A stretch of 64,000 nt of DNA from Candidatus Iainarchaeum sp. (GTDB taxonomy: Archaea; Iainarchaeota; Iainarchaeia; Iainarchaeales; JAAZKV01). The stretch covers positions 66,921-130,920 of the forward strand of contig JAQUZG010000001.1 in NCBI GenBank assembly GCA_028691435.1, read 5' to 3'. The translations under genes and the position numbers were made by a program. Below, piece by piece: positions 7,044-49,216 of the stretch (the stretch's first letter is position 1; each line of letters starts with the position of its first letter). Under the pieces are notes generated by a model that saw nothing but the letters and a program-made list of their open reading frames with translations, was not told the DNA's origin and did not search any database.

Positions 7044-7059
7044 TTTTTTTAAAATAAAA

Positions 7060-7269
7060 TTAGTTAGAAGCAACTTTTTCTTTTGCTTCTTTTTTTGAAA
7101 TTCTTGCCATATATCCAGCTAAAACATTTCTACTATTTTTTGATAAACCTAGTTCTAATGGAGCTAAATTTTTTTTATTTGTTTCAAAATTACCACCAAA
7201 TTTTTCTGGCATTTCTGTTGTTAAAACTTCGGCTCTATATTTTAATCCTTTTGATACTGCTTTTCCCAT
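7060..7269 (-). CDS. Hypothetical small protein (69 aa)
   Basis: Protein-like composition, MGKAVSKGLKYRAEVLTTEMPEKFGG.... It lies directly downstream of rpoK on the same strand. Not recognised. Confidence 0.3.
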   Translation of the reverse strand: MGKAVSKGLKYRAEVLTTEMPEKFGGNFETNKKNLAPLELGLSKNSRNVLAGYMARISKKEAKEKVASN

Positions 7270-7280
7270 GTTATTCCCCT

Positions 7281-7487
7281 CTAAAATAATTCTACTCTTT
7301 TTATTGTCCCATCTGGGTATCGTCTAAGTACACTTAATGGTAATGATTTTTCTTCCATTTCTTTTTCAGCAACTCTAAGCATTGATAATTCTTTTGTGCC
7401 TTTAACTAAAGGAGGTGCTCCTAAAGATAATTGTAAAGCTCTTGCAGATAAAATTCTTGTTAATTCAAATCTTGTTAATCTACCCAT
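7281..7487 (-). CDS. rpoK: DNA-directed RNA polymerase subunit K (Rpo6/RpoK, Rpb6 homolog)
   Basis: LTRFELTRILSARALQLSLGAPPLV is the conserved Rpb6/omega motif. 68 aa. Confidence 0.8.
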   Translation of the reverse strand: MGRLTRFELTRILSARALQLSLGAPPLVKGTKELSMLRVAEKEMEEKSLPLSVLRRYPDGTIKRVELF

Positions 7488-7590
7488 TTTCTCACCAAGT
7501 AATAATTAATTTCTTGATAAGAAGCTTTAAAAAAGTAGCTTTTGTTTGATTATTTTTTAATAAATATTAAACTAGCTAATATTAGCCTTT

Positions 7591-9111
7591 TTATTGATTT
7601 CTGGTGCAAATTTTGATTATTTCTGGTGGATTTAAGTTATATTTTGTCAAAAAATCTTTAATTATTTTTAGTGGGTTGCTTCCTTCTAAGTAAATTACCT
7701 TTTTTCCAGAGTAATATGTTCTATATCCTTTTTTTTCTGAAAATTCTTTAAATTCATTAATTGTTTCTTCTTGAATACTAAGTATTGCTTTTGCAAGTTC
7801 ACTTGAAAAAAACTTTGATAGTTGATTTGTTAGATGAAATGGTATTTCATTTAATATTTCTTTATATTTTTGATAATAAATATTAAAATATTCTTTTTCA
7901 AAAGTTTTAGTATAAATTAAAGTATTTGTTTGATTTTCATTTAATTTATTTTTTTTATTAAATAATTCAAATAAAAAATCATTTTTTTTATTTAAACTAA
8001 TTGATAAAAAAGATTCTTTTTTTTGACAAAACCAAAATAGTTCATGATTTTTTTCAATTTTAATTTTTTCATCTAGGTATAATATTTGTGCATCAATTAA
8101 TGGGATTTTTATTTTTTCATTTAATTTAATTGGGCCGATGGGATATTTATTTGAAAAATTTGTAAATTTTCTTAATTCACGATCTTTTTTATTTTCATGT
8201 TCTTTATGGAATTTATCTGCAAATAATTTTGATTTTGTTTCATAATAAAAATTATTTTCATTAAAACTAACTTCTATTTTTGTTGAGGGTAAAATATTTT
8301 TATCAGTCATTTTGTTGGGTTTACAGCAATTACAATTTAATGTATCAAATCCAATATTATAAAAATTTTTTGAAATTAATTTTGAGATAGTGGCTCCAAA
8401 ATCAATTTGTGAAAAAGAATCAAGAATATTAAATGGGATATATTCTTTAGTTAAAAAATTCAACTTTTCATTAGTTTTTTCTAATGATTGGCCATGTTCA
8501 AAAAATATATTTTCTAAATATGATTCAATTATTTCTTGTTTATTTTGACTAATTCTATAAGGTGCTATTTTTAGTATTTTTGATAAAATTGCTTTTTTTA
8601 TTATTTCAATTGTATCTTTTTCATTTATTTTTATTGCTTGATTAAATGATACATTTTGAAAAACTGTTTTTTCAAAATCAATATATTTATCTTTATTATT
8701 TAATTCTAAATTTTCTTCAATCTTATTAATTTCATTATCGTTAATTTTAAATTCGTCAAAATAACTCCAATTTTTTTCAATTAAAAATATTCTTTCAGGT
8801 TCTAAAATTAAATATTGTTTGTTTATTGTTTTTGAAAATAAATTATTTAATTTTTTTAATTCATCAATATGCTTTGCTTTTATTTTTAAATAGTCATTTT
8901 CAGTTTCTAATAAAATGTTGTTTAATTTAAATTCATTTAGTAAATTTTCAAACGTGTTTTTTGTTAATTTTTCATTAGTTTTTATTTTTAAATAAGGGTA
9001 AAAAATAAAGTTTTTTCTTTGAGTATAATTTTTATTTTTAAATTCACAAAGAATCTGATTTTTTTCTTGATTATAGTTTACACTAACTAAATATGTGTGG
9101 GATGTAAGCAT
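7591..9111 (-). CDS. Hypothetical protein, last gene of the nurA-herA operon. N-terminus weakly resembles the family-B DNA polymerase N-terminal domain. Contains a CNCC cysteine cluster.
   Basis: YLVSVNYNQEKNQILCEFKNKNYTQRKNFIFYPYLKIK parallels the PolB N-terminal IxDxDYxxExGKPVIRxFKKENGxFKIExDRTFxPYxYA. No intact exo (DIE/YNGxxFD) or pol (YGDTDS) motifs. There is a 60-nt gap after herA on the same strand. Confidence 0.3.
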   Translation of the reverse strand: MLTSHTYLVSVNYNQEKNQILCEFKNKNYTQRKNFIFYPYLKIKTNEKLTKNTFENLLNEFKLNNILLETENDYLKIKAKHIDELKKLNNLFSKTINKQYLILEPERIFLIEKNWSYFDEFKINDNEINKIEENLELNNKDKYIDFEKTVFQNVSFNQAIKINEKDTIEIIKKAILSKILKIAPYRISQNKQEIIESYLENIFFEHGQSLEKTNEKLNFLTKEYIPFNILDSFSQIDFGATISKLISKNFYNIGFDTLNCNCCKPNKMTDKNILPSTKIEVSFNENNFYYETKSKLFADKFHKEHENKKDRELRKFTNFSNKYPIGPIKLNEKIKIPLIDAQILYLDEKIKIEKNHELFWFCQKKESFLSISLNKKNDFLFELFNKKNKLNENQTNTLIYTKTFEKEYFNIYYQKYKEILNEIPFHLTNQLSKFFSSELAKAILSIQEETINEFKEFSEKKGYRTYYSGKKVIYLEGSNPLKIIKDFLTKYNLNPPEIIKICTRNQ

Positions 9112-9171
9112 AACGTACTTACTTTTTCTTAATTTAAAAACAGTTTTTAAGTAGCTAGCCGGTGATAGTTT

Positions 9172-10698
9172 TTACAAGTAAGCTTCAGTATCTTTATTTA
9201 CAATTTCTTCTTTTTCATTAAATCTTTTTGCTAGGTCTTCAAGAGTAAATTCATGTTTTGAATTTTGTGATTTTTTTAATCGGACTTTAAAAAAAGTTGG
9301 AGCATTAACTGCTTCCCCTACTATTAGTGCATCTCCAACTTTAAGTGATGGAATCATATTTATACTTGTTGAATCAAGTCCTTCACTAGTTTGTTTAATG
9401 TGATCTAAATCATATGGGTTAGTAATTCTAAGTATAATTTGTGTATTACAATTAGCTAAAATTGAAGATGATAATCTTTTTGGTCTTTGTGAAATAACTA
9501 CTAATGATGCTCCAAATTTTCTACCTTCTCTAGCAATTGTGGTTAATGGTTCTCTTGCTATTGCTCTTTCTCCAGCTGTACTTTCTGGAATAAAATTGTG
9601 TGCTTCTTCAACAATCAAAGTAAATGGTGGAATTTTTGAATAATTATCTTGTCTAAGATTAAATAATTTTCTTGAAACTAATGCTACAATAATTTGTTTT
9701 TTTCGTTCATCCATTATATCATTTAAATTAATTATTGTTAATTGTCCTTGTTTTAAAAAATCATAAATGCTTGGCTTTTCAATTTTTTCAAAAAGATTTA
9801 ATTGTTCAACTTCATTAAGCATAGCAATTAATGGATTAGCAGTTTTTTCATCTAAATTAAGCACTTCATTTTTTATTTTATTTAAATCAAATGGGCCAGC
9901 TCCACTTTTCATCTCCTGTTTTAATTTATTTATTATATTTAGTATTTCTCTTTTTTGAATATGTGTAATTTTTGGAAAAATTGATGATAATACACTTGGT
10001 GTGATACTTGAACATTTAAATTTAATATCTTTTCCATTAATTATTTTTGTTTTTGAAGAATAATCAGTATATTTATTATCAGTTACTCCTTCTCCAAAAA
10101 AACTATATTCATTATGCACATCAAAAAGTAAAAGTGCGATTTGGCCGTCTTCTTTTTGTCTTTGAAGTATTTCTTCAATAATTACTGAAGTTAAAAAAGA
10201 TTTTCCAGCTCCACTAGTTGCTAATATTGCTAAGTGTTTTTGAAGTAATTTTGATAATTTTGGTTTTAAATTTACATTATGAAATGGTATTTCTCCAAGC
10301 ATTAATCCTTTTTCATCAATTCCTAAAAATCGTTTTATATTTTCGCCTTCTGCAATAAACACTTTTGTACCTGGGGATGGTGGAAAAGTTGGTCTTTGTA
10401 TTTGTTTATTTTCACTAAATATCCCAAGTGGTCTAGTTTTTGCAATTAAAAATTCCCAATCTGCTACTGGGAAATGGTTTTCCATTTCACTTCCGATTGT
10501 TTTTACTGAATCTGGTCGTTCAAAATATCTATTTGTTTTAATTAAATCTTCTACCATGCAAATCATATTGCCTTGTGAATATGGTATTTCGACAAACATT
10601 CCTTTGTGGATCATGCCGTTGTTGATTACAAAATCTACTCTTGATGGTGATGGCCCATCAAAATTTGAAACTACTGTCCCTAATTGTTTTTCGTCCAT
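9172..10698 (-). CDS. herA: HerA-type hexameric DNA helicase/translocase (FtsK-HerA superfamily, DUF87)
   Basis: Walker A LAILATSGAGKSFLTS, Walker B TLIVEEAHNFIP and the C-terminal VVISQRPKRLSSSILANCNTQIILRITNPYDL motif typical of HerA. Confidence 0.8.
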   Translation of the reverse strand: MDEKQLGTVVSNFDGPSPSRVDFVINNGMIHKGMFVEIPYSQGNMICMVEDLIKTNRYFERPDSVKTIGSEMENHFPVADWEFLIAKTRPLGIFSENKQIQRPTFPPSPGTKVFIAEGENIKRFLGIDEKGLMLGEIPFHNVNLKPKLSKLLQKHLAILATSGAGKSFLTSVIIEEILQRQKEDGQIALLLFDVHNEYSFFGEGVTDNKYTDYSSKTKIINGKDIKFKCSSITPSVLSSIFPKITHIQKREILNIINKLKQEMKSGAGPFDLNKIKNEVLNLDEKTANPLIAMLNEVEQLNLFEKIEKPSIYDFLKQGQLTIINLNDIMDERKKQIIVALVSRKLFNLRQDNYSKIPPFTLIVEEAHNFIPESTAGERAIAREPLTTIAREGRKFGASLVVISQRPKRLSSSILANCNTQIILRITNPYDLDHIKQTSEGLDSTSINMIPSLKVGDALIVGEAVNAPTFFKVRLKKSQNSKHEFTLEDLAKRFNEKEEIVNKDTEAYL

Positions 10699-10702
10699 TT
10701 TT

Positions 10703-11368
10703 TCACTCTTTTAATTTTTCTAATACTTCAAATATTTCATCTAAAGATGAAATTATAAAATCTGGTTTTATTTTTGTTTCATTTTTTTTATTTGTTCTAT
10801 TTATCCAACAACTGTGTATTTTACAATTATTTGCGCCCATTATATCACTTTCAAGAGAATCTCCAACCATTATTGCCTCGTTAGAGTTTACATTAAATTC
10901 ATTTAATATTTTTTCAAAAACTATTTTGTTTGGTTTTACATCCCCAAAATTAAATGAAAATCCTAAATAATCAAAATATTTAGTTAATTTTAATTTTTCA
11001 ATTATTTCTTCTGAATGTAAACTTTCGGCATTACTAAGTAATGCAACAGAATATTTATTTTTATTTAATTTTTCAAGAGTTGATCTTACTTCTGGAAAGT
11101 ATTTTATTTTATCAAATCTATTAAGATAAATTTCATTTAATTCTCTTTCTAAGTTTTCATTATTTATTTCATGGAATTCTTTAAAAAAATCGTTTCTTAA
11201 CTCTTCAAAATTATCATATTTCTTTTTTTGTACTGCATTTTCATATCTTGTAATAAATTCGTCCATGCTAATATTTGATTCTTTTAATAATGTCTTTAAA
11301 TTTGCAACATTTATTGTTGCTGGAATTAGAGTTTTCCAAAGATCAAAAATAATTAATTTAACTACCAT
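10703..11368 (-). CDS. HAD-superfamily hydrolase (subfamily IA-like)
   Basis: Motif I IIFDLWKTL (DxD/W variant), motif III K and motif IV MVGDSLESDIMGA. It lies 4 nt upstream of herA and 29 nt downstream of nurA. Confidence 0.6.
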   Translation of the reverse strand: MVVKLIIFDLWKTLIPATINVANLKTLLKESNISMDEFITRYENAVQKKKYDNFEELRNDFFKEFHEINNENLERELNEIYLNRFDKIKYFPEVRSTLEKLNKNKYSVALLSNAESLHSEEIIEKLKLTKYFDYLGFSFNFGDVKPNKIVFEKILNEFNVNSNEAIMVGDSLESDIMGANNCKIHSCWINRTNKKNETKIKPDFIISSLDEIFEVLEKLKE

Positions 11369-11396
11369 GACTTATCACATATATTTATTGACCAAT

Positions 11397-12452
11397 TTAT
11401 TTAAATGGTCTATTGCCTCTCCTTAAATTTAATTTTGGTCCAATTTTATCAATTAATTTATTGAATACTATTTCAATTTCTTCATTTGTTAATCTTGCTC
11501 GCATATCTGCTTCGATTAAAATTGATGGGTAAGAATAATCTTTATGTAATGATGAAAGTTGATAAACAATTGATGCAATTTCATTTGCTTTTTCTTTTAT
11601 ATCTTTTTTTGCAATAAATTCTATTCGTAAAGCTTTATCATAATTTGATGCCTTTAAATAAAATACATATATATTGTTGCTCCAGTCTTTAGTGTATTCT
11701 TTTAGAATGCTATGTTTTTCAATATTTTTTGAATAATTAAAAAAACAAGTTCTTTCCCCATTGATTAATATGTAATCAAGTATTGATGAGTCTGATGCAA
11801 ATTTTAATTGTTCTTCATTAAGTTTTAACGAATCAATTAACACTTCTTTAAATCTATTTCCTCTTGAATCTTCAACAGTTGAAATTAAAGTGCAATTGTT
11901 TTCTTCACTTGTTTTGTATAATTTTTGAAATAAATCAATTATTGACTCATAATCATCTTTAATTTTTGAATCACTTCTTGGTTTATTTTGATATTGTGGA
12001 ATAATTGAACCGTCAATAAAAAGATATTTTGGTTTTTTTTCAATAATTAATTCTATTGATGTTGTGATTTCTTTTTTTAATCTTTCAATACCTTTACTTT
12101 GTTCTTCTTCATCATTCTCAAGTCCATTTTTAAGTAAAATTGGTTCTGGAAAAAGAGTTGGTTTGAAGTATTCTGCTTTTGTTAACTTTGAATCATTATA
12201 ACTAAAAATGACTGCTCCAATTTTTATTAAAAGTATATCTAAAAATGAAAGTCTTTTAGAAACAAATCCACTATCTACTCCGGCTATATCGCAATCAAAT
12301 TTAACTATTTTTATTTTTGACACAATTGTTTCAATTTCATTAATTGATAATTTGCTTTTTGATGGCACTAAATATTTTCCAAGTGTTTCGTTTTTTGTGT
12401 AATGTTGATTAATTTCTTCAAATGCTTGGTTCATGAAATTAGTATATTGCAT
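11397..12452 (-). CDS. nurA: NurA 5'-3' nuclease
   Basis: Conserved NurA-domain aspartates IAGVDSGF and YLFIDGSIIP. About 350 aa. Classical archaeal partner of HerA. Confidence 0.7.
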   Translation of the reverse strand: MQYTNFMNQAFEEINQHYTKNETLGKYLVPSKSKLSINEIETIVSKIKIVKFDCDIAGVDSGFVSKRLSFLDILLIKIGAVIFSYNDSKLTKAEYFKPTLFPEPILLKNGLENDEEEQSKGIERLKKEITTSIELIIEKKPKYLFIDGSIIPQYQNKPRSDSKIKDDYESIIDLFQKLYKTSEENNCTLISTVEDSRGNRFKEVLIDSLKLNEEQLKFASDSSILDYILINGERTCFFNYSKNIEKHSILKEYTKDWSNNIYVFYLKASNYDKALRIEFIAKKDIKEKANEIASIVYQLSSLHKDYSYPSILIEADMRARLTNEEIEIVFNKLIDKIGPKLNLRRGNRPFK

Positions 12453-15516: not shown

Positions 15517-18111
15517 ATGGATTATTTTAAACAAATTTTTACAATTTTATTGGGGTTAATTTTAATTAGTGGGGTATTTGCGGCAAGTCCACAAATGTTA
15601 TTTTCTACTGAATTATCGGGTGCGCATTATACTAATTATCCTAGTCTTGATTTTTATGCATCTGATACTGATGGTGATTTAAATACACTTTTAGTTGATG
15701 TGAATTATGTGATTGATAATACTACTATTTTTCATGATCAAAATTCTAGTGTTGCGGTAGCTACTAATGATATTAATCAAAAAGTTAATTTAATTGGTTC
15801 GCCCGATGGGAATTACTTAATTACTTTAACAGCTATTGATAATGCATTAAATACAACAATCCAATCTTATTGGGTGTTTATTGATACTGCTGCTCCAGTA
15901 GTTACATCCGTTGTTACAGTTGATGAAGATTACCTTTATGGAATAAATAGGGAATTAACTGTAAAAGTTAATGCTACTGATTTGTCAGGAATTGGTAGAG
16001 TTTTTATTGATTTAAATAACATAATAAAAACAAATTGTGCAGTATCTGGAAGTTTTTGTGAAATGACTCAAAAAACAGACGGAAATTGGACAATAAATTT
16101 AGGTGATGGGTGGGATTATGATTTTAATCAATTTGATGTAAATGTAAGAGTTGGTGATAAAACTTTAGCAAATTTTGCCGATGCAAATTATTTGTTAAAT
16201 GATGGTCAAGGTATTTTTCTTTATAGTTTAGAATATGTTTCATCTGACTTAAATGGGATTTCATCAACAAATTTTAAAGACATTAATAACTTCCAAAGAG
16301 TTTTGAATTTAACATTTGAAAAAACAGGTTATGGAAAAATTGTTTTCAATCAAGATATTAATTTGCTTGATGGTATGACAGTTAATGAATTATTAAATTT
16401 AGCAAATGCAATAACAATTGATGTTAATAGTGAAAATACTGATCAAAAATCAATTGACATAAATAGTCTAGCTTTTGCAAATTTAAATAAATCAGCAACA
16501 CTATATTTATACAATTTAAATTATTCATCTATTCCAAAAATAATTTACATTAATTCAAGTGGGACTACTGAAGTTTGTTCAACAGATAGATGTTCATCTT
16601 TAGATTATAATTTGGTTTCAAAAACAGCAACATTTAATGTAACTGGATTTAGTAAATATCAAACATCTTATAATTTACCAGTATTTACTAATTCACTTTC
16701 AACAAATATTGATTCTGCTGAATATGAATTTTTTTCAGATTCAAACACACTTCAAATACAAGCTAGTCAAACATTTAAATTATTTATTCCTGTTACAAAA
16801 GGAAGTTATGATTTAAATTTATCATCTTGTAAAATTGATATAAACGGAATTATTTATTCTGCTGATTGGAACAGTGATGGTAATAATTGTCAATATCAAT
16901 TTGTTTCTGGTGTTCCAAATGGATCAAGTTGGACAGTAAAATTTAATATTAAAGATATTAATGGACATGATGTTAATTCTGCAACATACTCAATTGTTGG
17001 AGATTCATCTTCACCAATAATTACAATTTTATCTAATTCTTCAGTTTCAACTTCAACTGGAGTAATTACATTAAGATCTAATGAAAAATCAACTTGTAAA
17101 TATAATTCTTCAAATGTATCTTATGATTCAATGAATTCAAGTGTTTATTCATTAGCTGCAAACACATCATTAAACGTTACAATCTCTGGATTATCTTCTG
17201 GGACATCATATGGATATTATTTTAAATGTAAAGATTATGCTGGAAATGAATCAAATGCTGATAATAATTATATTTCATTTACAACATCTTCATCTTCTTC
17301 ACCTGATTCAGCAGCTAGTTCGGCTTCTTCATCATCTAATTCATCTTCAACAAAAGATTATATTGATGAAACTGCAAATACTCCTAATTCAACACCATTA
17401 GTAATTTCTAAATCTACTGATTCAGATGAAATTTCTAATGATGAAGTTAGAGGAATTTTAACTGATGCAAAAGATAATAATGGTAAAGCTCTATTTTCTG
17501 AAGAAGAAATTTTAAAAATGGTTGAAGAATCAAATAAATTTTCTTTTGTTAGAGAAGTTAAAGTAGAAGAAATTGATAATAATGGAATAATTACTTATCA
17601 AACGACTTTCACAATAAAAATAAAAAATACAACTGATAAAAATTTATCTGATGTATTAATTGTTGAAGTAATTCCAAAAGATTTAATAAATTTTATTGAT
17701 TTAAATATGATTAAATCAATTTATCAATTTAGAATATTAGCTAGTGATCCAGTTGTTGAATTTACTGTTCCATTGGTTGATGCAAATACTGAATTAGTAT
17801 TAGAATATACTATTGATTTAAACAATAAACCTGATGTAAACAATATTGTTTTTTCATCACCCTTAGTAAAAAATACAAACATATTTGTTGCAAAATCAAC
17901 TGATTCAATGAATTGGATTTTTGACATTCTTCAAATTATAATAATTTTGATAGTTCTTGGATTAATTATTGGGGCTGGGATAGTTATTTATTCAAACTCA
18001 AATAAATCTAAATCTAAAACTGATTCAAAAAAAGAGGTTAAAAAATCAACTGATTCAAAAGCGTCAAATTCGAACTCTGAACATAAAGGAAAATTCAAAT
18101 TAAAAAAGTAA
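15517..18111 (+). CDS. Large secreted surface glycoprotein, S-layer-like
   Basis: N-terminal signal peptide MDYFKQIFTILLGLILISGVFAAS. About 800 aa rich in N-x-S/T sequons. Ser-rich linker SSSSSPDSAASSASSSSNSSS. C-terminal TM helix IIIILIVLGLIIGAGIVIY plus a Lys-rich tail. Confidence 0.6.
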   Translation: MDYFKQIFTILLGLILISGVFAASPQMLFSTELSGAHYTNYPSLDFYASDTDGDLNTLLVDVNYVIDNTTIFHDQNSSVAVATNDINQKVNLIGSPDGNYLITLTAIDNALNTTIQSYWVFIDTAAPVVTSVVTVDEDYLYGINRELTVKVNATDLSGIGRVFIDLNNIIKTNCAVSGSFCEMTQKTDGNWTINLGDGWDYDFNQFDVNVRVGDKTLANFADANYLLNDGQGIFLYSLEYVSSDLNGISSTNFKDINNFQRVLNLTFEKTGYGKIVFNQDINLLDGMTVNELLNLANAITIDVNSENTDQKSIDINSLAFANLNKSATLYLYNLNYSSIPKIIYINSSGTTEVCSTDRCSSLDYNLVSKTATFNVTGFSKYQTSYNLPVFTNSLSTNIDSAEYEFFSDSNTLQIQASQTFKLFIPVTKGSYDLNLSSCKIDINGIIYSADWNSDGNNCQYQFVSGVPNGSSWTVKFNIKDINGHDVNSATYSIVGDSSSPIITILSNSSVSTSTGVITLRSNEKSTCKYNSSNVSYDSMNSSVYSLAANTSLNVTISGLSSGTSYGYYFKCKDYAGNESNADNNYISFTTSSSSSPDSAASSASSSSNSSSTKDYIDETANTPNSTPLVISKSTDSDEISNDEVRGILTDAKDNNGKALFSEEEILKMVEESNKFSFVREVKVEEIDNNGIITYQTTFTIKIKNTTDKNLSDVLIVEVIPKDLINFIDLNMIKSIYQFRILASDPVVEFTVPLVDANTELVLEYTIDLNNKPDVNNIVFSSPLVKNTNIFVAKSTDSMNWIFDILQIIIILIVLGLIIGAGIVIYSNSNKSKSKTDSKKEVKKSTDSKASNSNSEHKGKFKLKK

Positions 18112-33469: not shown

Positions 33470-34279
33470 ATGATTAAGTTAGTTTTTGAAAGAAGTATTG
33501 AAGAATATAAAAGTAATATTAAAGTAGTATTGTCTTTTGGGTTATTATTATTGTTTGTGCCTTTATTTTTATTTTTTGATCAATTTTTAGTTGCCTCAGG
33601 AACATCATTTTTACTTTATTATGGATCAATTCTAGCCATAATTGGTTTAATTATTGGAGCAATTTTTTTATACTTTTTTTCTTTTTTTATAACGTTAATT
33701 ATTTATTCAGTAAAAAGAGATGTTCAAAATGTCAGATATGAAGGATTTTGGAATGAAGCAGTTAGAGATAACTCTATTAAAATTTTCTTATTTTATTTTC
33801 TAATTTCATTTTTAGTTTATGTAGTTTCAATTACTGGGTTAATGTTTGGATTAAATGATATTTTTATTTTTGTTAACTTAATAATTTTAATAATTGTAAT
33901 GTTTGTTCCACAAAGTTTAGTTTTAGATGATGTGCATATTGTTGATGCTATATCAAATAGTATTGATTTTTTAAAAACAAATAAAAAAACTTGTTTTGTA
34001 ATTTTTGCAATCGGTTCAATTGCTTTATTTATCACATTAATTATCGAATTTGTTTTAAACGTTTTTAATTTACCCGGATCATTTTTGTCATTTATTATTG
34101 TTTTACTTTTAATAACTCCATTTATTGAACAAATGAAATCTTATGCTTATGTTTTGAAAAATGATTTAATTAAAAGTCCAGAAATACATCAAACAAGAAT
34201 TGATAAAATTAAACAAGTACCAAAGAAAAAAATTAATGCTGTTAGATTAAGAGAAATGCCAACAAAAGGAAAGATTTAG
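33470..34279 (+). CDS. Hypothetical multi-pass membrane protein
   Basis: 6-7 predicted TM helices. No motif. Confidence 0.4.
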   Translation: MIKLVFERSIEEYKSNIKVVLSFGLLLLFVPLFLFFDQFLVASGTSFLLYYGSILAIIGLIIGAIFLYFFSFFITLIIYSVKRDVQNVRYEGFWNEAVRDNSIKIFLFYFLISFLVYVVSITGLMFGLNDIFIFVNLIILIIVMFVPQSLVLDDVHIVDAISNSIDFLKTNKKTCFVIFAIGSIALFITLIIEFVLNVFNLPGSFLSFIIVLLLITPFIEQMKSYAYVLKNDLIKSPEIHQTRIDKIKQVPKKKINAVRLREMPTKGKI

Positions 34280-40345: not shown

Positions 40346-42730
40346 ATGGTTGATGAAATTGAATTAATTGTTCAAGATCCTGATCCAACACATGTTGGAA
40401 GGAATATAATCACTCTTGACAAAAATTCAAAATTAAAAATTGGTGTTACTTCTGGTGACATTGTAGAAATTGAAGGTAAGAAAAAAACTGCCGCTCTTGT
40501 TTGGCCAGCAAAAGTTGATGATGTTGGAAAAGAAATTGTTAGAATGGACTCTTTTATAAGACATAATGCAGGAGTTGCATTAAGTGATAAAGTAAAAATT
40601 AGAAAGTGTGTTCCTCGTGAAGCAAAGAGAATTGTTTTAGCACCTATTGAAGAAGTAAGAATAATCGCATCAGGGTATGATAGAATTTTAAAAAAATCTT
40701 TTCTTGGTAGACCTTTAACTATTGGTGATAATGTTTGGGTTAGTGTTTTTGGTTCGGGTTTTATTTACAAAGTTGTTGATACACAACCCCGTGCAATAGT
40801 AAAAGTAACTGATAATACTGAATTTTCATTAAAAGAAAAGCCTGTTGCTGATACCCTTGAAGGAATTTCAAGAGTTGCTTATGAAGATATTGGAGGATTA
40901 ACTGAACAAGTAAAAAAAATTAGAGAAATGGTTGAACTTCCAATGAAGCATCCTGAATTATTTCAAAAACTTGGTGTGATTCCCCCAAAAGGAATTTTAC
41001 TTTATGGAGCTCCTGGGACTGGAAAAACTCTTTTAGCAAAAGCTGTTGCAAATGAAGCACAAGTTCATTTAATTTATATTTCTGCTCCAGAAGTGATGGG
41101 GAAATTTGTTGGTGAAGCAGAAGAAAGAGTAAGAAAAATTTTTAAAGAAGCACAAGATAATGCTCCATCTTTAATTTTTATTGACGAGATTGATGCAATT
41201 GCATCTAAACGAGATGAAGTAGTTGGAGAAGTTGAACGAAGAGTTGTTGCACAACTTCTTTCATTAATGGATGGACTTGCAGCAAGAGGGGAAGTAATTG
41301 TAATGGCTGCAACAAATAGAATAAATTCTATTGATGAAGCATTGCGTAGGCCTGGAAGATTTGATAGAGAAATTGAAGTTGGGGTGCCTGATAAAAAATC
41401 AAGAAAACAAATTTTAAATATTCATACTCGTGGTATGCCATTAGCAAAAAATTATTTAACTAATAAAAAAATAGATAATTTAAATTTAACAACTGATCAA
41501 AAAGTTATCTATGATATTGTTAAATCAAGTAAAAAAATAGATATTGTTGATATTTTTAAAAGTTATAATGAAATGACTCAATCAAAAAAACCTATGTCAG
41601 AAATTGCTGATATATTAAGAGATATGTGTGATAAAGAAATTTTAAAAAGAACTGATTTTGATATTGAATATTTTTCTGATTTAACTCATGGATTTGTTGG
41701 AGCAGATTTGCAAGCTTTAACAAAAGAAGCTGCGATGAAAGCTTTACGAAGATATTTGCCTGAAATTGAAAAGTTAAGTGATGCTGAAACAATACCTATT
41801 GAAGTATTAACTTCTTTAAAAATTACAAAACAAGATTTTTTAGATGCTCTTAAAGACGTGTCTCCGTCTGGACTTAGAGAATTTACTAGTGAAATTCCAA
41901 ATGTGTTGTGGGAAGATATTGGGGCTCTTGAGGATGTAAAAGATGAATTAAAACAAGCTGTTGAATGGCCAATAAAACATCCAACTGTATTTAAAGAAAT
42001 GGGGATTGTTCCACCTAAAGGTGTATTGCTTTATGGGCCACCAGGCACTGGAAAAACAATGCTTGCAAAAGCTGTTGCTACTGAATCGGGCGCGAATTTT
42101 ATTTCAATTAAAGGGCCAGAATTATTAATTAAATGGGTTGGAGATTCTTCAAAAGCTGTTAAAAAATTATTTAGAAAAGCTCGTCAACTTGCACCATGTA
42201 TTGTATTTATTGATGAAATTGATTCAATTGCATACAATAGAAATTCTGATATGTCTGGTGGAAAAGGTGTTACTGAAATAATTAATCAATTATTAACTGA
42301 ACTTGATGGGGTTGAAGCATTAAGAGACGTTGTTTTTATTGCGGCCACAAATCGTCCTGATTTAATTGACAAAGCTATGCTTAGACCTGGAAGACTTGAT
42401 AAATTAATTATGGTTCCTGTTCCAAATGAAAAATCAAGAGAAGAAATATTAAAAGTTTTACTTAAAAATGTGAATGTTGACAAAACTGTTTCTTTAAAAG
42501 AATTAACTAAAAAAACAGAAGGATTTTCTGGAGCTGATTTATCAGGATTAATTAGAGAAGCAGCATTACTTTTATTAAAAGAAAATAAAATGAAACCTGC
42601 TCCAATTACAATGTATCACATTAATAAAATATTAGAAAAAACTAAACCTACTATTGATGAAGAATCAGAAAAAGCCTATAGTGAATTTAAAGAAAAAGTG
42701 CTTGATTTTAGACCAACTTATGTTGGGTAG
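40346..42730 (+). CDS. cdc48: Cdc48/VCP/p97 AAA+ ATPase (N-domain + D1 + D2)
   Basis: Two AAA modules: [20 protein letters not shown] / [10 protein letters not shown] and [20 protein letters not shown] / [10 protein letters not shown]. Cdc48 N-domain. Confidence 0.9.
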
Positions 42731-42762: not shown

Positions 42763-43194
42763 TTATTCAATATTTTTTATTTCAAAATCAATTTGATTAT
42801 TTTTTTTAAATAATATAAAATTAATTTTTTGATTATATTCTTGTTGTATTAAATTTATTTTATTTGGAAACTTTATAATAAACTTTTTTGTTTTATTTTC
42901 TAAGTATAGTTTTTCATTTTCACTTTTTATTAAAAGATTAAATGCATTAAATTCAATTTCTTTTTTTGAATCATTATCTAAAAACATAAAAAATCCTATT
43001 TCATTTTCTAGATTTTTTGAAAAGTTTTCAATATTTTTATTTTCTACAAACGATATAAATTTTGAATTTACTTCTATTATAGCTGGTAAAATTATTGTTA
43101 ATGCTAAAAATGATGCTGCAATCAACATCATTAATTCTATCGAAATTTGACCAAATTTGTTTAATTTTATTTTTTTCTTTAACATTTTCACCAA
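42763..43194 (-). CDS. Class III signal peptide (archaeal type IV pilin-like) protein
   Basis: KKKIKLNKFG|QISIELMMLIAASFLAL: basic stretch, G|Q cleavage-like site, Glu at +5, hydrophobic helix. Confidence 0.6.
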   Translation of the reverse strand: MVKMLKKKIKLNKFGQISIELMMLIAASFLALTIILPAIIEVNSKFISFVENKNIENFSKNLENEIGFFMFLDNDSKKEIEFNAFNLLIKSENEKLYLENKTKKFIIKFPNKINLIQQEYNQKINFILFKKNNQIDFEIKNIE

Positions 43195-43253
43195 ACTCTC
43201 TTATTTTAGGACAGTTGTTTTAATTTTTGCTTTTTTATTGTTCAAATTGCAGC

Positions 43254-43439
43254 TTAAATCTTATCAATTTTTTCAAACACATCTTTTGCAGTTTTTTCTA
43301 TTTTTTTAGCCCCTTGGTCCGATGTAGATTGTAATTGTGAAACAAGTACAAGTACAACAGCAACAACTGCTGCTAAAACAATTATTAATTCAACTGAAAT
43401 TTGTGCTTTTTCTTCTTTGATCAATTTTTTTAAATTCAT
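43254..43439 (-). CDS. Small class III signal peptide pilin-like protein (61 aa)
   Basis: KEEKA|QISVELIIVLAAVVAVVLVLV with Glu at +5. Confidence 0.6.
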   Translation of the reverse strand: MNLKKLIKEEKAQISVELIIVLAAVVAVVLVLVSQLQSTSDQGAKKIEKTAKDVFEKIDKI

Positions 43440-43608
43440 AAAAAATTACTTTTTTTGTTTGTTTAAAAAGCTATTTTAAATTTCGCTAATAGTCGATATA
43501 GTATATGCGTTTAAAATAAGTTAAAACAATTATACTAAATTTTGTAATTAATTAGTTTATGTTATTTTGCAATAATTTATATATATTTTTCATATTAATC
43601 TATATACT

Positions 43609-44244
43609 ATGACAACAAAAAAATCAATTTGGTATTTTTCAAAACAAGAAAAAATTGATTTGTTAATTAGTTGGCTAACTTTATCACTAGCTTTTGCAGT
43701 TGTAATCTCGCCAATTTTTTTAGGAATTCCTGAATTTATAATTTCTTTTCCAATTGCATTAATTGCTGTTGGAACTGGTTTTGTTTTACATGAAATGGCA
43801 CATAGACAAATGGCAAGACATTTTGGATTTCATTCAGAATATAGGGCATGGTATCCAGGTTTAGTTTTTGCTTTTTTCTTAGCATTAATAACAAAAGGGG
43901 CATTTATTTTTGCAGCACCTGGTGCAACATATTTTTTTGGAGAAACAGTAACTACTCAGCAAGAAGGTAAAATTTCAATTGCTGGGCCAATAACAAATTT
44001 AGTTGTTGGATTTATTTTAATTTTTTTATTTTTATTTTCGCATTCATCATTTTGGCAAATTGTATTGATCAAATCAGCATTAATTAATTTCTGGTTTGCA
44101 GCATTTAATTTAATTCCATTTGGGCCACTTGATGGTGCAAAAGTGATGAAATGGAATTCAAGACTTTGGATTTTAGTTTTTGCAATTTCAGCATTACTTG
44201 CTTTATTTCCAATTCAAATTTTTACAGTTTTAAATTTAATTTAA
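43609..44244 (+). CDS. Membrane-embedded zinc metalloprotease, site-2 protease (M50) family-like
   Basis: HExxH within a TM helix (GFVLHEMAHRQMARHFG) and a downstream FNLIPFGPLDGAKV matching the S2P LDG motif. 211 aa. Confidence 0.55.
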   Translation: MTTKKSIWYFSKQEKIDLLISWLTLSLAFAVVISPIFLGIPEFIISFPIALIAVGTGFVLHEMAHRQMARHFGFHSEYRAWYPGLVFAFFLALITKGAFIFAAPGATYFFGETVTTQQEGKISIAGPITNLVVGFILIFLFLFSHSSFWQIVLIKSALINFWFAAFNLIPFGPLDGAKVMKWNSRLWILVFAISALLALFPIQIFTVLNLI

Positions 44245-44597
44245 TAACATACGTTTAATTTTATTTTTTTAAATTGAAAAAATAAATCATTTATTTCTTC
44301 TTCTCTAGTAACACAATTTTTACCATTTAATTCATTTAAATTATCAAAAATTATTTTTCCATTAACTTCTATTTTAAAATAATTAAAAAATTTTTTTGCA
44401 TCAGTTATTAGTTCATCTGTGTTAGTGTTATTATAACTCCAAATTTTAATTAAATCATTTTCTTGTTGAATTATAATAAGATCAGTATAATTTTTATTAA
44501 TACTAAAATTAACATTTACAATTAATATTAAAACAAGTATTATTGAAATAATTGTTTCAAATGAAAAAACTTGACCTCTTAAATTTAATTTTGTCAT
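44241..44597 (-). CDS. Class III signal peptide pilin-like protein
   Basis: LNLRG|QVFSFETIISIILVLILIV. Confidence 0.55.
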   Translation of the reverse strand: MTKLNLRGQVFSFETIISIILVLILIVNVNFSINKNYTDLIIIQQENDLIKIWSYNNTNTDELITDAKKFFNYFKIEVNGKIIFDNLNELNGKNCVTREEEINDLFFQFKKIKLNVCY

Positions 44598-45046
44598 TTT
44601 TTACACCCTTTTAAAGATAAAACTTTTTTATTATCCTTGATTAACACATATCTCTTTATTGTAACACAATCTTTGCTTTCTAACAAATCATGGAAAATTT
44701 GTTTCTCATCTAATTTAATTTCTTTAACAAAAAAATTTTTGATATTTAGTTGTTTTATTTTACTAAATAAACTTTCATCTAATTGATTACTAATTATTCG
44801 CTTTTTTTCATAATCTATTTGACAACTTCCAAGAAGTGAATTTTCAATATTTCTATTTTTTACAAAACTATCTGCTAAAAAAATAGTTTTTTCAATTAGT
44901 TCATTGTCTTTAAATTGATTTAAATTAAAATTATAATTTTGAAAATATGAACTCATTAAAATAAATATTGTAATTAGAATTAAACAAAAACTAACAATTA
45001 AATCAATTGAATAAAACATTGCTTTTTCATTTAATATAATGTTCAC
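44594..45046 (-). CDS. Pilin-like protein with N-terminal hydrophobic helix
   Basis: NEKA|MFYSIDLIVSFCLILITIFIL. Overlaps neighbouring genes by 4 nt. Confidence 0.45.
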   Translation of the reverse strand: MNIILNEKAMFYSIDLIVSFCLILITIFILMSSYFQNYNFNLNQFKDNELIEKTIFLADSFVKNRNIENSLLGSCQIDYEKKRIISNQLDESLFSKIKQLNIKNFFVKEIKLDEKQIFHDLLESKDCVTIKRYVLIKDNKKVLSLKGCKK

Positions 45047-45353
45047 TTTTTTCCACCTCTAATTGATTTGATTTAATTATTTTTGGAATTATTTGACTAA
45101 ATTTTTCTTTGTTAAAAACAATATTTTCTTCTCCAAAACAACTAATTTTATCAATGTATTCATTTGCACTATTAGAATAAATTGAATCAATCAAATTCAT
45201 ACAAAATACACTTTCATTTTTTGAAATCAATTCATTATTCTTAAATTCAAAACCAGTATTAATTTTTATTAAACTAGACGAGATTATTGAAATTCCAATT
45301 ATTAATCCAAGTAAAACAAACATAAATTCAATAGTATTCATTTTATCACACAA
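45027..45353 (-). CDS. Pilin-like protein
   Basis: MNTIEFMFVLLGLIIGISII with acidic residue at +5. Confidence 0.45.
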   Translation of the reverse strand: MCDKMNTIEFMFVLLGLIIGISIISSSLIKINTGFEFKNNELISKNESVFCMNLIDSIYSNSANEYIDKISCFGEENIVFNKEKFSQIIPKIIKSNQLEVEKSEHYIK

Positions 45354-45912
45354 CTTTTAATCCAACATAACTTATTTTGTAATCTATTGGAATTTCAAAA
45401 TAAGTATTCATTTTATCACCTATTTTTTTAGTCAATTTAATAGTTTTTTCAAAATTTGATGTAAAAATATAATCTATAATTGTTACTTTTTCTAAATGAG
45501 TTATTGAAACTTTTGTAACTTTATTTAAATTTTCTTTTGTAGGTAAATTAATTTCATTTTTTAATTGATTTTCTAAAATTAAATTTTCTTTTAAAAATAT
45601 TTTTTCTAAATTTTGATTAATATTTTCTTTAATTGTATCTGAATCAAAATATTGTTTAATAAATTCTTTTTGAAGTTCTTGATAAATTACATTGTCAATT
45701 TTTTCTTCAAGAATAGTTCTTTTACAATTAATTATTTCATTTATACTTAATGTGTTTTGCATTAAATTATTTTTCTCATTTATTTGTTGAAAAATAATTA
45801 ATTGATTAATTATCATTATTATAATTATAAAAAATAAAATGTAACTAAAAAGTCCCTTTTTATTTAATCTCATAATTAATTGCGTTTTATTTTCATTTTT
45901 AAACAATTGCAT
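45346..45912 (-). CDS. Class III signal peptide pilin-like protein
   Basis: RLNKKG|LFSYILFFIIIIMIINQLIIF. Confidence 0.5.
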   Translation of the reverse strand: MQLFKNENKTQLIMRLNKKGLFSYILFFIIIIMIINQLIIFQQINEKNNLMQNTLSINEIINCKRTILEEKIDNVIYQELQKEFIKQYFDSDTIKENINQNLEKIFLKENLILENQLKNEINLPTKENLNKVTKVSITHLEKVTIIDYIFTSNFEKTIKLTKKIGDKMNTYFEIPIDYKISYVGLKVV

Positions 45913-46037: not shown

Positions 46038-47567
46038 ATGGTAAATTATTCTAAAAAAGTTGAGGAAATACTTCATTTATCTGACTCTGTTGAAATAGAT
46101 CAAATAAAAGCACTTAGTGAAATTGAAAGAGCACTTTTAATCAATTTAACAGAAAAATTTATTGATTTAGATGATGCTGCTAATTTATCAAAGTTACCTA
46201 TTGATTCAGCAAGAAGAGCAAGTGCTTGGTTAGCTGAAAAAAAATATATGAATTTAAAAGAAAATGACAAAGAAACTTTTTTATTAACTTTAGAAGGAAA
46301 AAAAATTGTAAAAAATGATTTTGCAGAAAATATTATGATTAAATATTTAGAAGAAAATGGCGATTCATCTTTTAACCAATTACAATCAAATGCAAATTTA
46401 ACTAATCAAGAATTTACTGTTGCACTGGGAATAAACAAAAAGAAAGCATTTATTTCAATTTCTAATGGAATTATTTCTCTAACAGGTGTGCATAAAGAAA
46501 TTAAGCAAACAATTTCAAAAGAATTATTATCTCTTCTAACTTCAAAATCAAATCTAACTGATGAAGAAAAACAATTAGTTAATGAATTTTTAAAAAGAGG
46601 ATTAATTGAAAAAAAAATAATTTCTTCAAAAGAAATTTCATTAACTAAAAATGGTTTAGTTGCTAAAGAATTTTTATTAAAAAATAAAGTTGAGCGAGTT
46701 TATGATTTAGAAGGAGAAGTTCCAAGAATTTTTATGGGAAAAAAAGCGCCTTATTTACAGTTCCTTTCTCAAATTCGTTCAAAACTTGTTGCGCTTGGAT
46801 TTAATGAAATGCCTACTCCATTAGTAGTTTCAGAATTTTATAATTTCGATGTATTATTTCAACCTCAAAATCATCCAGCACGAACTTGGTCAGATACTTA
46901 TCAATTGACTAGACCAACTGTTTCAAAACTACCTGACAAAAAAATTATTGATTCAATTAGGGCTGCTCATGAAAATGGTGGAAAAGCAAATAGTAAAGGT
47001 TGGGGATATAAGTGGGATGAAAACATAGCAAAAAAATTAATGCCTGCTGCACAAGGTACTGCACATTCTGCAAAAACAATGATTAATGACAAAGAAATGC
47101 CAAAAAAACATTTTGCAATTGCAAGGGTGTTTAGGCCCGATGTTTTAGATGCAACACACTTAATTGAATTTAATCAAATGGAAGGGTATATAGTTGGTCA
47201 AGATTTAAATTTTAGAAATCTTCTTGGTATGCTTAAAGAATTTGCAATAGAAATTGCAGGTGCAGAGAAAGTAAAATTTTTTCCAGACTATTATCCATTC
47301 ACAGAACCAAGTGTACAACTAAGTGCAAAACACCCTGATTTAGGTTGGGTGGAATTAGGTGGAGCTGGAATGTTTAGGCCAGAAATATTAAAAAACATTG
47401 GAATTGATGGTCAAGCAATTGCTTGGGGATTTGGAATTGATAGACTTGCAATGTTTAAACTTGGAATAAAAGATATTAGATATTTATTTGCAGAAGATTT
47501 AGGCTACTTAAGAAAAGCCCCTGCTGTTATGCTTGATGATGTGAGGTCTTATTTATGCCAACACTAA
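46038..47567 (+). CDS. pheS: Phenylalanyl-tRNA synthetase alpha subunit (archaeal type)
   Basis: Class II catalytic core (FRPDVLDATHLIEFNQMEG, GAGMFRPEIL, GFGIDRLAM) with N-terminal wH extensions. Confidence 0.85.
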   Translation: MVNYSKKVEEILHLSDSVEIDQIKALSEIERALLINLTEKFIDLDDAANLSKLPIDSARRASAWLAEKKYMNLKENDKETFLLTLEGKKIVKNDFAENIMIKYLEENGDSSFNQLQSNANLTNQEFTVALGINKKKAFISISNGIISLTGVHKEIKQTISKELLSLLTSKSNLTDEEKQLVNEFLKRGLIEKKIISSKEISLTKNGLVAKEFLLKNKVERVYDLEGEVPRIFMGKKAPYLQFLSQIRSKLVALGFNEMPTPLVVSEFYNFDVLFQPQNHPARTWSDTYQLTRPTVSKLPDKKIIDSIRAAHENGGKANSKGWGYKWDENIAKKLMPAAQGTAHSAKTMINDKEMPKKHFAIARVFRPDVLDATHLIEFNQMEGYIVGQDLNFRNLLGMLKEFAIEIAGAEKVKFFPDYYPFTEPSVQLSAKHPDLGWVELGGAGMFRPEILKNIGIDGQAIAWGFGIDRLAMFKLGIKDIRYLFAEDLGYLRKAPAVMLDDVRSYLCQH

Positions 47568-49216
47568 CTTTATCAAAATCAGATTTTGACAAATTACTTG
47601 GAAAAAAAACAAATCGTGATGAACTTGAAGAATTACTTGAATATGTAAAAGGTGAAATTGATTCATTAAATCAAGATGAATTAAAAGTTGATTGTAAAGA
47701 AACAAATCGACCAGATTTATGGTCAACAGAAGGAATAATTAGAGAATTAAAAGCTAGAACTGGTAAAGAAAAAGGAATAAAAAAATATGCTGTAGAAAAA
47801 GGTGACATAAAAATTTATGTTGATAAAAATTTAGAAAAAGTTCGACCAAAAAGTGTTTGTGCAGTAGTAAAAGGAATAAAAATTACTGAAGAACTTTTAA
47901 TTCAATTAATTCAAATTCAAGAAAAAGTTTGTGAAGGATTTGGAAGAAAAAGAAAAGAAGCTGCAATGGGATTATATGATTTAGATGTAATGACTCCCCC
48001 ACTTTATTATAAAGGATTTAAAGATAATGAAATTGAATTTGTTCCTCTTGATTATAAAGTTGCAATGCGACCAAGCGAAATTTTATTACAACACGATAAA
48101 GGAAAAGCATATGCTCACTTACTAAAAGATGTGCCAGTATACCCAATAATTATTGATTCAAAAAATGTTGTTGCTTCAATGCCGCCAATAATTAACTCAA
48201 ATATCACTGGAAAAGTTAGTGAAAAAACAAAAAATCTTTTTATTGAAGTAACTGGTTCAAAACAAGACTCAATTGAAACAGCACTTGAAGTTATGTGTAT
48301 GGCATTAGCTGACAGAGGTGGAAAAATTTATTCTTGTGAAGTAATATATGAAAAAGAAACAATTATTTCACCAAAATTTTTAACAAATAAAATAACTTTA
48401 ACAAAATCAGAAATTGAAAAAGTTACAGGTTTAAAATTATCAAATGATGAAATAAAAGACTTGTTAGAAAAAGCAAGGTATGATGTGCAAGTAAAAGGTT
48501 ATGATTTTATTTGTGAATATCCAGCATATAGATTAGATATTTTTCAAGCAGTTGATGTTATTGAAGATCTATTAATTTCTTATGGTTTTAATAAAATAGA
48601 ACCTCAAAAAATAGTAATGAATGTAGTTGGTAGTGAAAGAGCAGATAAAAAATATGAAGAATTTGTTAGAGCAGCATGTGTTGGTTTAGGACTACAAGAA
48701 ATCCAAACTTTTAATTTAACTTCAAAAGAAATACAATGCGAAAAAATGAATTTACCAAATGAAATTGATTCATTTGTTGAAATTTCTAATCCAGTTTCAA
48801 TAAATTATCAAATTATGCGAAAGCGATTATCTCCATCGTTACTTTCATTTTTATCAAAAAATAAAAATCAAGAATTTCCACAAAATATTTTTGAAGTTGG
48901 GAATTGTTTAGAATTAAACGAAAAAGCGGAAAATGGAGTTAATCAAAAAACAAATTTATGTGTTGCATTGACTCATTCAAATGTAAATTTCACAGAAATA
49001 AAGTCAATTTTTGTTACACTTTGTGAATATCTTGATTTAAAATACAATTTTGAAAAAATAACTGAAAAAGAAAAATCAAATTATTCATTCTTAGGTCAAA
49101 ATTCAATAAAAATCAAAGTAAATGGGAAAACTGGGTATATGGGGGAAATTGATAAAAAAGTTGAAGAAAATTTTGGATTAAAAAAACCAGTTTATTTGTT
49201 TGAATTTGAACTTTAA
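47555..49216 (+). CDS. pheT: Phenylalanyl-tRNA synthetase beta subunit (archaeal type)
   Basis: B3/B4 and B5 domain layout. Overlaps pheS by 13 nt. 553 aa. Confidence 0.8.
   Translation: MPTLTLSKSDFDKLLGKKTNRDELEELLEYVKGEIDSLNQDELKVDCKETNRPDLWSTEGIIRELKARTGKEKGIKKYAVEKGDIKIYVDKNLEKVRPKSVCAVVKGIKITEELLIQLIQIQEKVCEGFGRKRKEAAMGLYDLDVMTPPLYYKGFKDNEIEFVPLDYKVAMRPSEILLQHDKGKAYAHLLKDVPVYPIIIDSKNVVASMPPIINSNITGKVSEKTKNLFIEVTGSKQDSIETALEVMCMALADRGGKIYSCEVIYEKETIISPKFLTNKITLTKSEIEKVTGLKLSNDEIKDLLEKARYDVQVKGYDFICEYPAYRLDIFQAVDVIEDLLISYGFNKIEPQKIVMNVVGSERADKKYEEFVRAACVGLGLQEIQTFNLTSKEIQCEKMNLPNEIDSFVEISNPVSINYQIMRKRLSPSLLSFLSKNKNQEFPQNIFEVGNCLELNEKAENGVNQKTNLCVALTHSNVNFTEIKSIFVTLCEYLDLKYNFEKITEKEKSNYSFLGQNSIKIKVNGKTGYMGEIDKKVEENFGLKKPVYLFEFEL

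Follow-up and report, generated by a model that had tools for sequence, protein, structure and literature searches.

The seven-gene block

We analyzed a 64,000-nucleotide stretch of the genome of Candidatus Iainarchaeum sp. (the window, ~25% G+C as a whole), in which a block of seven genes at positions 42763-45912 comprises six genes for small pilin-like proteins, here called p143, p61, p118, p150, p108, and p188, and one gene for a membrane protease of the M50/site-2 protease (S2P) family. A preliminary description of this DNA had drawn attention to the block, and all seven open reading frames (ORFs) are present where it had placed them. The sequence comparisons reported below support the conclusion that the six small genes are a genuine and strongly conserved pilin-like set.

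Read along the forward strand, the block begins with p143 (42763-43185, minus strand), which encodes a pilin-like protein with a globular part, 140 amino acids (aa) long from the ATG at 43185 in an ORF that reaches a TTG at 43194. After a gap of 59-68 nt comes p61 (43254-43439, minus strand; 61 aa), the predicted major pilin, and an AT-rich intergenic region of 169 bp (43440-43608) then separates p61 from the divergent M50 gene (43609-44244, plus strand), which overlaps p118 by 4 nt, tail to tail. The remaining four genes form an operon on the minus strand that is headed by p188 (45346-45912); it continues with p108 (45027-45341, from a conserved ATG at 45341 in an ORF that extends to 45353), which encodes a leaderless pilin-like protein, and with p150 (44594-45046; 150 aa, with a GTG start and a GAGGTG Shine-Dalgarno-like site), and it ends with p118 (44241-44597), p150 and p118 both encoding predicted minor pilins. 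The small genes had been described as packed with 4-nt overlaps, which is true of p118 and p150 but not of the other pairs: p150 and p108 overlap by 20 nt, p108 and p188 overlap by 8 nt or, with p108 starting at its conserved ATG, are separated by 4 nt, and p143 and p61 do not overlap at all. Cdc48 (40346-42730, plus strand) flanks the block on the p143 side and PheRS alpha/beta (46038-49216, plus strand) on the p188 side, where only 125 bp lie between p188 and PheRS alpha. The segment 44001-46000, which coincides with the p188-p118 operon, has the lowest G+C content of the window (18.6% versus ~25%) and a negative GC skew.

Pilin-type N-termini

In five of the six small proteins, the exception being p108, the motif [KR]-x(0,1)-[GA] directly precedes a hydrophobic helix of ~20 residues, giving predicted cleavage sites (marked here by a slash) of KFG/QISIE in p143, where the basic residue is the K at -3, KA/QISVE in p61, RG/QVFSFE in p118, KA/MFYSID in p150, and KG/LFSY in p188. 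An acidic residue is found at +5 or +6 in p143, p61, p118, and p150, and one N-terminal transmembrane (TM) segment is predicted in each of the six proteins, with a mean hydropathy of 2.5-3.2 over 20 residues. Prepilin-type N-termini had been ascribed to all six; a cleavage-type site stands in five of them, but p108 is leaderless and p188 has no acidic residue.

The basic residue at -2 or -3 and the Gly or Ala at -1 are kept for p143, p61, p118, p150, and p188 in 52-62 orthologues each. A strict scan for [KR][GA] followed by a hydrophobic segment, run over the window ORFs of at least 40 aa (n = 197), returned four matches, all four of them within the cluster (hypergeometric P = 2.5e-7). Alignment of the N-terminal segments with hhalign relates the families to one another, with probabilities of 95% for p143-p61, 94% for p143-p108, 94% for p118-p150, and 83% for p108-p150.

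The p61 protein begins with a 12-aa leader and would be cut at MNLKKLIKEEKA/QISVELIIVLAAVVAVVLVLVSQ, leaving a mature part of 49 aa that has no globular domain. Across 61 orthologues the N-terminus EEKA/QISVELIIVLAAVVAVVL and the hydrophobic core are nearly invariant, with the Q at +1, the S at +3, and the E at +5 fully so, and the Pfam scan returns a weak match of p61 to Flp1_like. The p143 leader reads MLKKKIKLNKFG/QISIELMML, with a family consensus of [RK][AG]/QxS[LI]EYLLL, and nearly all of its 62 orthologues adjoin p61. In a joint alignment of p61 and p143 (65 sequences) the Q, S, and E are invariant, and 53 of the 65 sequences match the class III signal family PF04021 at E<=0.01, the best with E 1.9e-5. 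Compared with PDB sequences, the joint p61 and p143 profile gave nothing significant, the weak top matches (E 0.1-0.8) being the Geobacter pilin PilA-N and archaellins.

The four-gene operon p188-p108-p150-p118

None of the four operon proteins matched PF04021 in the Pfam scan. The p118 protein starts MTKLNLRG/QVFSFETIISIIL, with the family consensus KG/FVFSxEA, and in its 58 orthologues the G at -1 and the E at +6 are each 91% conserved. In p188 the sequence around the site is NKKG/LFSYILFF in the window, most orthologues begin MKG/FFSF, and the G at -1 is 98% conserved among 52 orthologues; the helix carries no acidic residue and is followed by the conserved motif NELI..E..NKERT.lENN.DKII. 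Translation of p108 from the ATG at 45341 gives MNTIEFMFVLLGLIIG, in which the Glu is residue 5 of the unprocessed chain, and the 38 orthologues of its family likewise begin MNS[LI][ED]A, with Glu or Asp as residue 5 and no leader upstream.

The p150 protein starts MNIILNEKA/MFYSIDLIVS (family consensus KG/xIFSxDA) and has 59 orthologues in the fetched loci by local phmmer and hmmsearch. A word-indexed protein search recovered three relatives from the single sequence and 19 from a 48-sequence profile, a low count that we attribute to the index because the local searches found 59. An exhaustive profile search yielded 254 clusters among 1.84 billion representatives, with lengths of 107-211 aa among the 150 listed, and the family is thus narrow; its named relatives are called "hypothetical protein", save for one JGI entry, "uncharacterized Fe-S cluster-containing protein". 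An AlphaFold2 model built from a 19-sequence alignment (mean predicted local distance difference test score, pLDDT, 80.8) places a helix at residues 2-62 ahead of six beta strands, and the predicted architecture resembles the "lollipop" of pilins, fold searches with p150 having returned no significant match. Both the p150 family (Cys127 and Cys148) and the p108 family contain an invariant pair of Cys residues 21 residues apart, and in the p150 model the pair sits on the adjacent strands 125-136 and 139-149. These pairs fit exported domains and suggest a C-terminal disulfide resembling that of the D-region of bacterial pilins.

The M50 protease

The protein encoded on the opposite strand matches PF02163 (Peptidase_M50) with 43.2 bits, against a cut-off of 27.2, and carries both active-site motifs, HEMAH at residues 61-65 and N..P....DG at residues 167-176, of which H61, E62, H65, N167, P170, D175, and G176 are invariant across 30 homologues. 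Six TM segments are predicted, and comparison with the Methanocaldococcus jannaschii S2P structure 3B4R (MJ0392) gives E = 9e-10, with ~70 residues aligning well. The presence of an opposite-strand S2P-like gene amid the pilin-like genes, as first described, is confirmed by this evidence. The homologues (n = 3596) are named site-2 protease or Zn-dependent protease in their source. No substrate is known for archaeal S2Ps (PMC9263693), and we found no literature that links M50 or S2P proteases to archaeal pilins.

Conservation and gene order

A profile of the M50 homologues was used to collect 80 loci from species-representative genomes, in which orthologues of the small proteins were sought beside the M50 gene with phmmer and hmmsearch; after clustering, this gave six families of 38-62 members each. 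Orthologues of all six small proteins adjoin the M50 gene in most Iainarchaeota loci, in some 60 genomes of this DPANN phylum (Iainarchaeota/Diapherotrites). The usual order, with signs for strands, is PheRSa-, c9_90+, [c13_216+], p188+, p108+, p150+, p118+, p143-, p61-, M50+, Cdc48-, NFACT-, HTH- (a helix-turn-helix protein), TopoI- (topoisomerase I); the full seven-gene string from p188 to M50 is found in 31 loci and occurs in partial or near-complete form in many others, and the divergent p61-/M50+ layout is the commonest in the relatives. In the window and in locus L035 the p143-p61-M50 segment is inverted with respect to this order, and it is because of this inversion that pilin genes are wrapped around the M50 gene in the window. 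We therefore reject an embedding by design, which would have to be read into an arrangement that occurs only in the window and L035 and that stems from one inversion. Elsewhere the six-gene block is inverted (L045 and L054) or the genes stand in yet another order (L027).

Synteny of the M50 gene with pilin genes in relatives, on which the preliminary description had made its case depend, is present: among the Iainarchaeota loci in which the M50 gene has at least 3 kb of sequence to either side, a pilin-like gene lies within 1 kb of it in 36 of 40. Cdc48, however, lies within 1.5 kb of the M50 gene in the same 36 loci, and PheRS, Cdc48, NFACT, the HTH protein, and topoisomerase I are as syntenic around it as the pilins are. 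A linkage of M50 and pilin genes beyond this background synteny, in the form of co-transcription or of co-occurrence independent of the housekeeping genes, was not found, 36 of 40 being also the figure for M50 and Cdc48. In the usual order the M50 gene diverges from p61 and converges on Cdc48, in the window it and p118 converge, and everywhere except in L027, where it is co-directional with a pilin gene, it is either divergent from or convergent with the pilin genes. Four Iainarchaeota loci (L056, L061, L065, and L066) have the M50 gene without pilin genes, and in metagenome-assembled genomes (MAGs) labeled Woesearchaeota, Nanoarchaeota, and Parvarchaeota its orthologue lies between KsgA-like and PAC2-like genes. 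The earlier suggestion that the S2P processes or regulates the pilins finds no specific support in these data: Cdc48 is a neighbor just as often, the strands are opposed but for L027, and the M50 gene also occurs without pilins.

Upstream of the p188 operon, deeper Iainarchaeota encode c13_216, a protein with an ArsR-type winged helix (PF01022/PF12840) and, after it, a TM anchor, for example at L040:3047-3715 (+) and L061:5158-5865 (+), with homologues in L021, L036, L038, L042-46, L054, L056, L057, and L063-66. Its gene directly adjoins the M50 gene in the pilin-less loci L056, L061, L065, and L066, and neither the window nor its closest relatives have it. The topology of c13_216 suits an S2P substrate.

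Another small protein, c9_90 (~90 aa, two TM segments, a conserved YYNR motif, no Pfam family), is encoded directly upstream of p188 and on the same strand in most relatives (48 loci, e.g. L010:2861-3124(+)) and may therefore be a seventh member of the cluster; the window lacks it.

The secretion ATPase and the assembly machinery

A FlaI/PilB-type secretion ATPase (564-2093, minus strand; PF00437, 117.5 bits) is encoded 41-45 kb from the pilin genes. In NCBIfam it is best matched by the archaellum ATPase FlaI, at 240 bits and under the equivalog cut-off of 550; it is the only T2SSE-family ATPase in the window, has no paralogue there, and is a candidate for the motor of the pilins. The gene is bordered by a TYW3 fragment on one side and the CCA-adding enzyme on the other. 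A metagenome scan with this ATPase returned two loci, of which L082 was the informative one: a 41% identical ATPase (L082:7893-9521) stands there in the same context of CCA ... ATPase ... LigT-TYW3. The isolation of the ATPase is thus conserved, because the L082 relative keeps the same housekeeping context. No platform gene lies beside the ATPase in the window or in L082.

Within the cluster there is no gene for an ATPase, a platform protein, or an A24 peptidase. Both parts of the earlier observation, that the cluster comes without machinery of its own and that the sole ATPase of the window is isolated with no platform gene adjoining, agree with the Pfam and NCBIfam scans. The search for machinery applied Pfam and NCBIfam to the multi-TM ORFs of the window, scanned the multi-TM ORFs in 0.9 Mb of relatives' loci for GxGD, and applied Pfam to the unassigned membrane proteins near the cluster in the relatives. 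The window proteins with at least six TM segments are the M50 protein, a DUF373 protein, and an unassigned 269-aa protein only.

The 269-aa protein (33470-34279, plus strand) is predicted to span the membrane seven times and matches nothing in Pfam or NCBIfam. Lacking a GxGD motif, it does not stand out as a prepilin peptidase.

In archaea, pilin sets that are encoded on their own and rely on ATPase/TadC pairs from other loci have been described (PMC4858521; bioRxiv 10.64898/2026.04.22.720090), and type IV pili have been reported for Diapherotrites genomes (PMC8561730). The system had been called dispersed or unconventional. It is dispersed, in that the pilins are encoded away from the ATPase, but it is not unconventional, such sets having been described in archaea; the dispersed layout is real and ordinary for archaea. 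We likewise considered and rejected the idea that an isolated ATPase is in itself unusual, given that the isolation is conserved and that stand-alone pilin sets are well described.

Other features of the window

An 864-aa protein encoded at 15517-18111 (plus strand) opens with a signal sequence, continues with a Ser-rich linker, and ends in a TM anchor; it matches no Pfam family and is possibly an S-layer or adhesin protein. The window also contains a DNA-repair cluster (4992-12452) with genes for a Rad50-like protein (4992-7043), HerA (9172-10698), and NurA (11397-12452); the 221-aa ORF between HerA and NurA (10703-11368) is likely to encode a putative Mre11.

Discussion

We consider it probable that the six genes encode the filament subunits of an Iainarchaeota type IV pilus-like appendage and that the M50 gene is a mere neighbor, placed there by frozen gene order. 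Sequence motifs, conservation, and architecture give the pilus interpretation good support, and the locus is a stand-alone archaeal type IV pilin set, of a known kind, four of whose families are unannotated. In this set p61 would be the major pilin, a 49-residue helix-only subunit like the Epd and Flp pilins, and p143 a second class-III-signal pilin with a globular part. The p188, p108, p150, and p118 proteins would be four low-abundance minor pilins that probably prime or cap the filament, as do the minor-pilin sets of bacteria in type IV pili, type II secretion systems, and Com systems. The precursors would enter the membrane via the N-terminal helix, a prepilin peptidase encoded elsewhere would cut them after the conserved Gly or Ala, with the leaderless p108 joining uncut, and polymerization of the subunits would fall to the FlaI-like ATPase (564-2093) and a platform protein whose gene lies elsewhere. 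The M50 protein, a widely conserved single-copy membrane protease, would have no part in this; its gene would have been a neighbor of the pilin genes since early in the phylum, and a three-gene inversion in the source genome put it inside the cluster.

Several results weigh against this interpretation. The PF04021 (Class_IIIsignal) scores of p143 (16.7 bits) and p61 (19.4 bits) are both under the gathering cut-off of 23.7, and no Pfam or NCBIfam model matches p188, p108, p150, or p118. In p150 and p118 the acidic residue stands at +6 and not at +5, in p188 it is missing, and p108 lacks a site for cleavage. Neither a TadC/FlaJ protein nor an A24 peptidase was found in the 64-kb window or in the 0.9 Mb of relatives' loci; no platform protein or peptidase having been seen in the DNA searched, the machinery is therefore assumed and not seen. 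In addition, the pilin genes stay beside the M50 gene through at least four local rearrangements, and selection for linkage would give the same pattern.

Comparison with known systems brings out both the familiar and the particular traits of the set. The Epd pilus of Methanococcus maripaludis, archaeal type IV filament (TFF) system 1, consists of the major pilin EpdE (arCOG06620) and the minor pilins EpdA-C and has the peptidase EppA; Epd major pilins are helix-only, and system 1 has been reported in some DPANN (PMC4858521; 10.64898/2026.04.22.720090). In character p61 is like the Epd major pilin: it is short, has no globular domain, and has Gln at +1. The leaders end in G/A before the Q with the QxSxE signature of PF04021, several further class-III-signal proteins serve, or here would serve, as minor pilins, and the pilin genes can be remote from the ATPase. 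Unlike the Epd system, however, the Iainarchaeota set includes four proteins (p188, p108, p150, and p118) without a sequence match to any Pfam or NCBIfam family, of which p108 is leaderless, and none of its genes lies with a machinery gene, whereas the 11 genes of the Epd locus form a unit that includes a peptidase of its own.

The composition of the set also resembles that of ComGC with ComGD-G, GspG with GspH-K, and Flp with TadE/TadF, in which one abundant small pilin stands beside an operon for about four low-abundance pilin-like proteins. The bacterial minor pilins also share with the set the Gly conserved at -1 and the N-terminal helix, in both sets one member lacks the acidic residue (PMC8727766), and KG/F.FS.EA recalls the bacterial G/FTLIE. 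The differences are that the lineage is archaeal, that no sequence homology was detected, that the acidic residue is at +6, and that a tip-complex role in the Iainarchaeota set would be by inference only. To our knowledge, archaea also have no outer-membrane or secretin components. The M50 protein for its part resembles MJ0392 (PDB 3B4R, M50B family) in its HExxH and NxxPxxxxDG motifs, its approximately six TM helices, its length of ~210-225 aa, and its lack of a PDZ or CBS domain; in Iainarchaeota its gene has pilin neighbors. Finally, in the TcpP/YaeL system an S2P and a membrane-tethered winged-helix-turn-helix regulator govern a type IV pilus operon, and in deeper Iainarchaeota M50, c13_216, and the pilin operon are neighbors. 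This is pure analogy, and c13_216 is of ArsR type and not OmpR/ToxR type and is absent from the window.

The persistence of the gene pair through rearrangement also bears on a different explanation, in which the M50 protein functions in the pilus system via regulated intramembrane proteolysis, cutting a membrane-tethered transcription factor in control of the pilin operon or degrading unassembled pilins. We regard this as unlikely, even though the M50 gene stays beside the pilins in at least four arrangements and p143-p61-M50 was inverted as a unit in the window and L035. The TM-anchored c13_216 heads the pilin operon in deeper Iainarchaeota and adjoins the M50 gene where the pilins are absent, and its N-in, single-TM topology is of the classic S2P substrate type; the window and its closest relatives, however, lack c13_216. 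Unassembled pilins are small type II single-span proteins, the kind that RseP-like S2Ps remove, and the control of the Vibrio toxin-coregulated pilus by TcpP and YaeL is a precedent for S2P regulation of a pilus. That no archaeal S2P substrate is known (PMC9263693) would likewise allow for such a role. Yet the adjacency to pilins is no stronger than that to Cdc48, there is no co-transcription with the pilin genes, the orthologue is kept with unrelated neighbors in other DPANN MAGs, and the cleavage is purely conjectural. In its specific forms, as a pilus switch that releases c13_216 and turns the pilin genes on or off or as a quality control that clears unassembled helix-only pilins, the proposal seems to us rather less than likely on this evidence, indeed quite unlikely; if true, an archaeal S2P would for the first time have an assigned function and substrate, and proteolysis would for the first time be seen to control a type IV pilus in archaea.

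Two other explanations concern the identity of the subunits and their processing. Rather than filament subunits, p188, p108, p150, and p118 could be accessory or stator-like proteins anchored in the membrane that, much like ArlF/ArlG in the archaellum, remain there and help to assemble or anchor a filament of p61 and p143. The leaderless p108, the p188 helix without an acidic residue, the +6 position of that residue in p150 and p118, the absence of a matching Pfam pilin family for all four, and fold searches that are not pilin-specific all point in this direction. We nevertheless find it decidedly improbable: in three of the four families the K/R-G directly before the helix is conserved at 86-98%, which is hard to explain without recognition by a peptidase, profile comparison relates the N-terminal helices of the four to the ones in p143 and p61, and a four-protein operon beside a major pilin mirrors known minor-pilin sets (PMC8727766 for ComGD-G). 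It is also conceivable that the M50 protein substitutes for the A24 prepilin peptidase and itself removes the class III leaders, given that neither the window nor the 0.9 Mb of fetched loci contains an A24-like gene (GxGD, multi-TM). S2Ps such as MjS2P do have their active sites close to the cytoplasmic side of the membrane, and the helices that they act on are oriented N-in, C-out. M50 orthologues are, however, widespread in archaea that have PibD/FlaK-type peptidases, and they occur in DPANN MAGs without pilin neighbors. The conserved K/R-G/A before the Q is moreover the signature that aspartic prepilin peptidases recognize, the peptidase search covered a small part of any genome, and type IV pili are reported generally in Diapherotrites genomes (PMC8561730), all of which makes the substitution very improbable indeed.

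DPANN archaea are thought to need surface filaments for holding their host cells, and their pilins are mostly annotated as hypothetical proteins. If, as the evidence favors, the protease link is only frozen gene order, the locus would usefully, if unsurprisingly, extend the list of known archaeal type IV pilin sets. The S2P and, in some lineages, the membrane-tethered regulator beside the pilins would still offer a place to seek an archaeal S2P substrate. For the pilus itself, our reading gives the phylum a conserved set of subunits, made up of a major pilin that is helix only, a pilin with a globular part, and four minor-pilin-like families without annotation, one of them leaderless, and these would be targets for proteomics, cryo-EM, and host-attachment studies.

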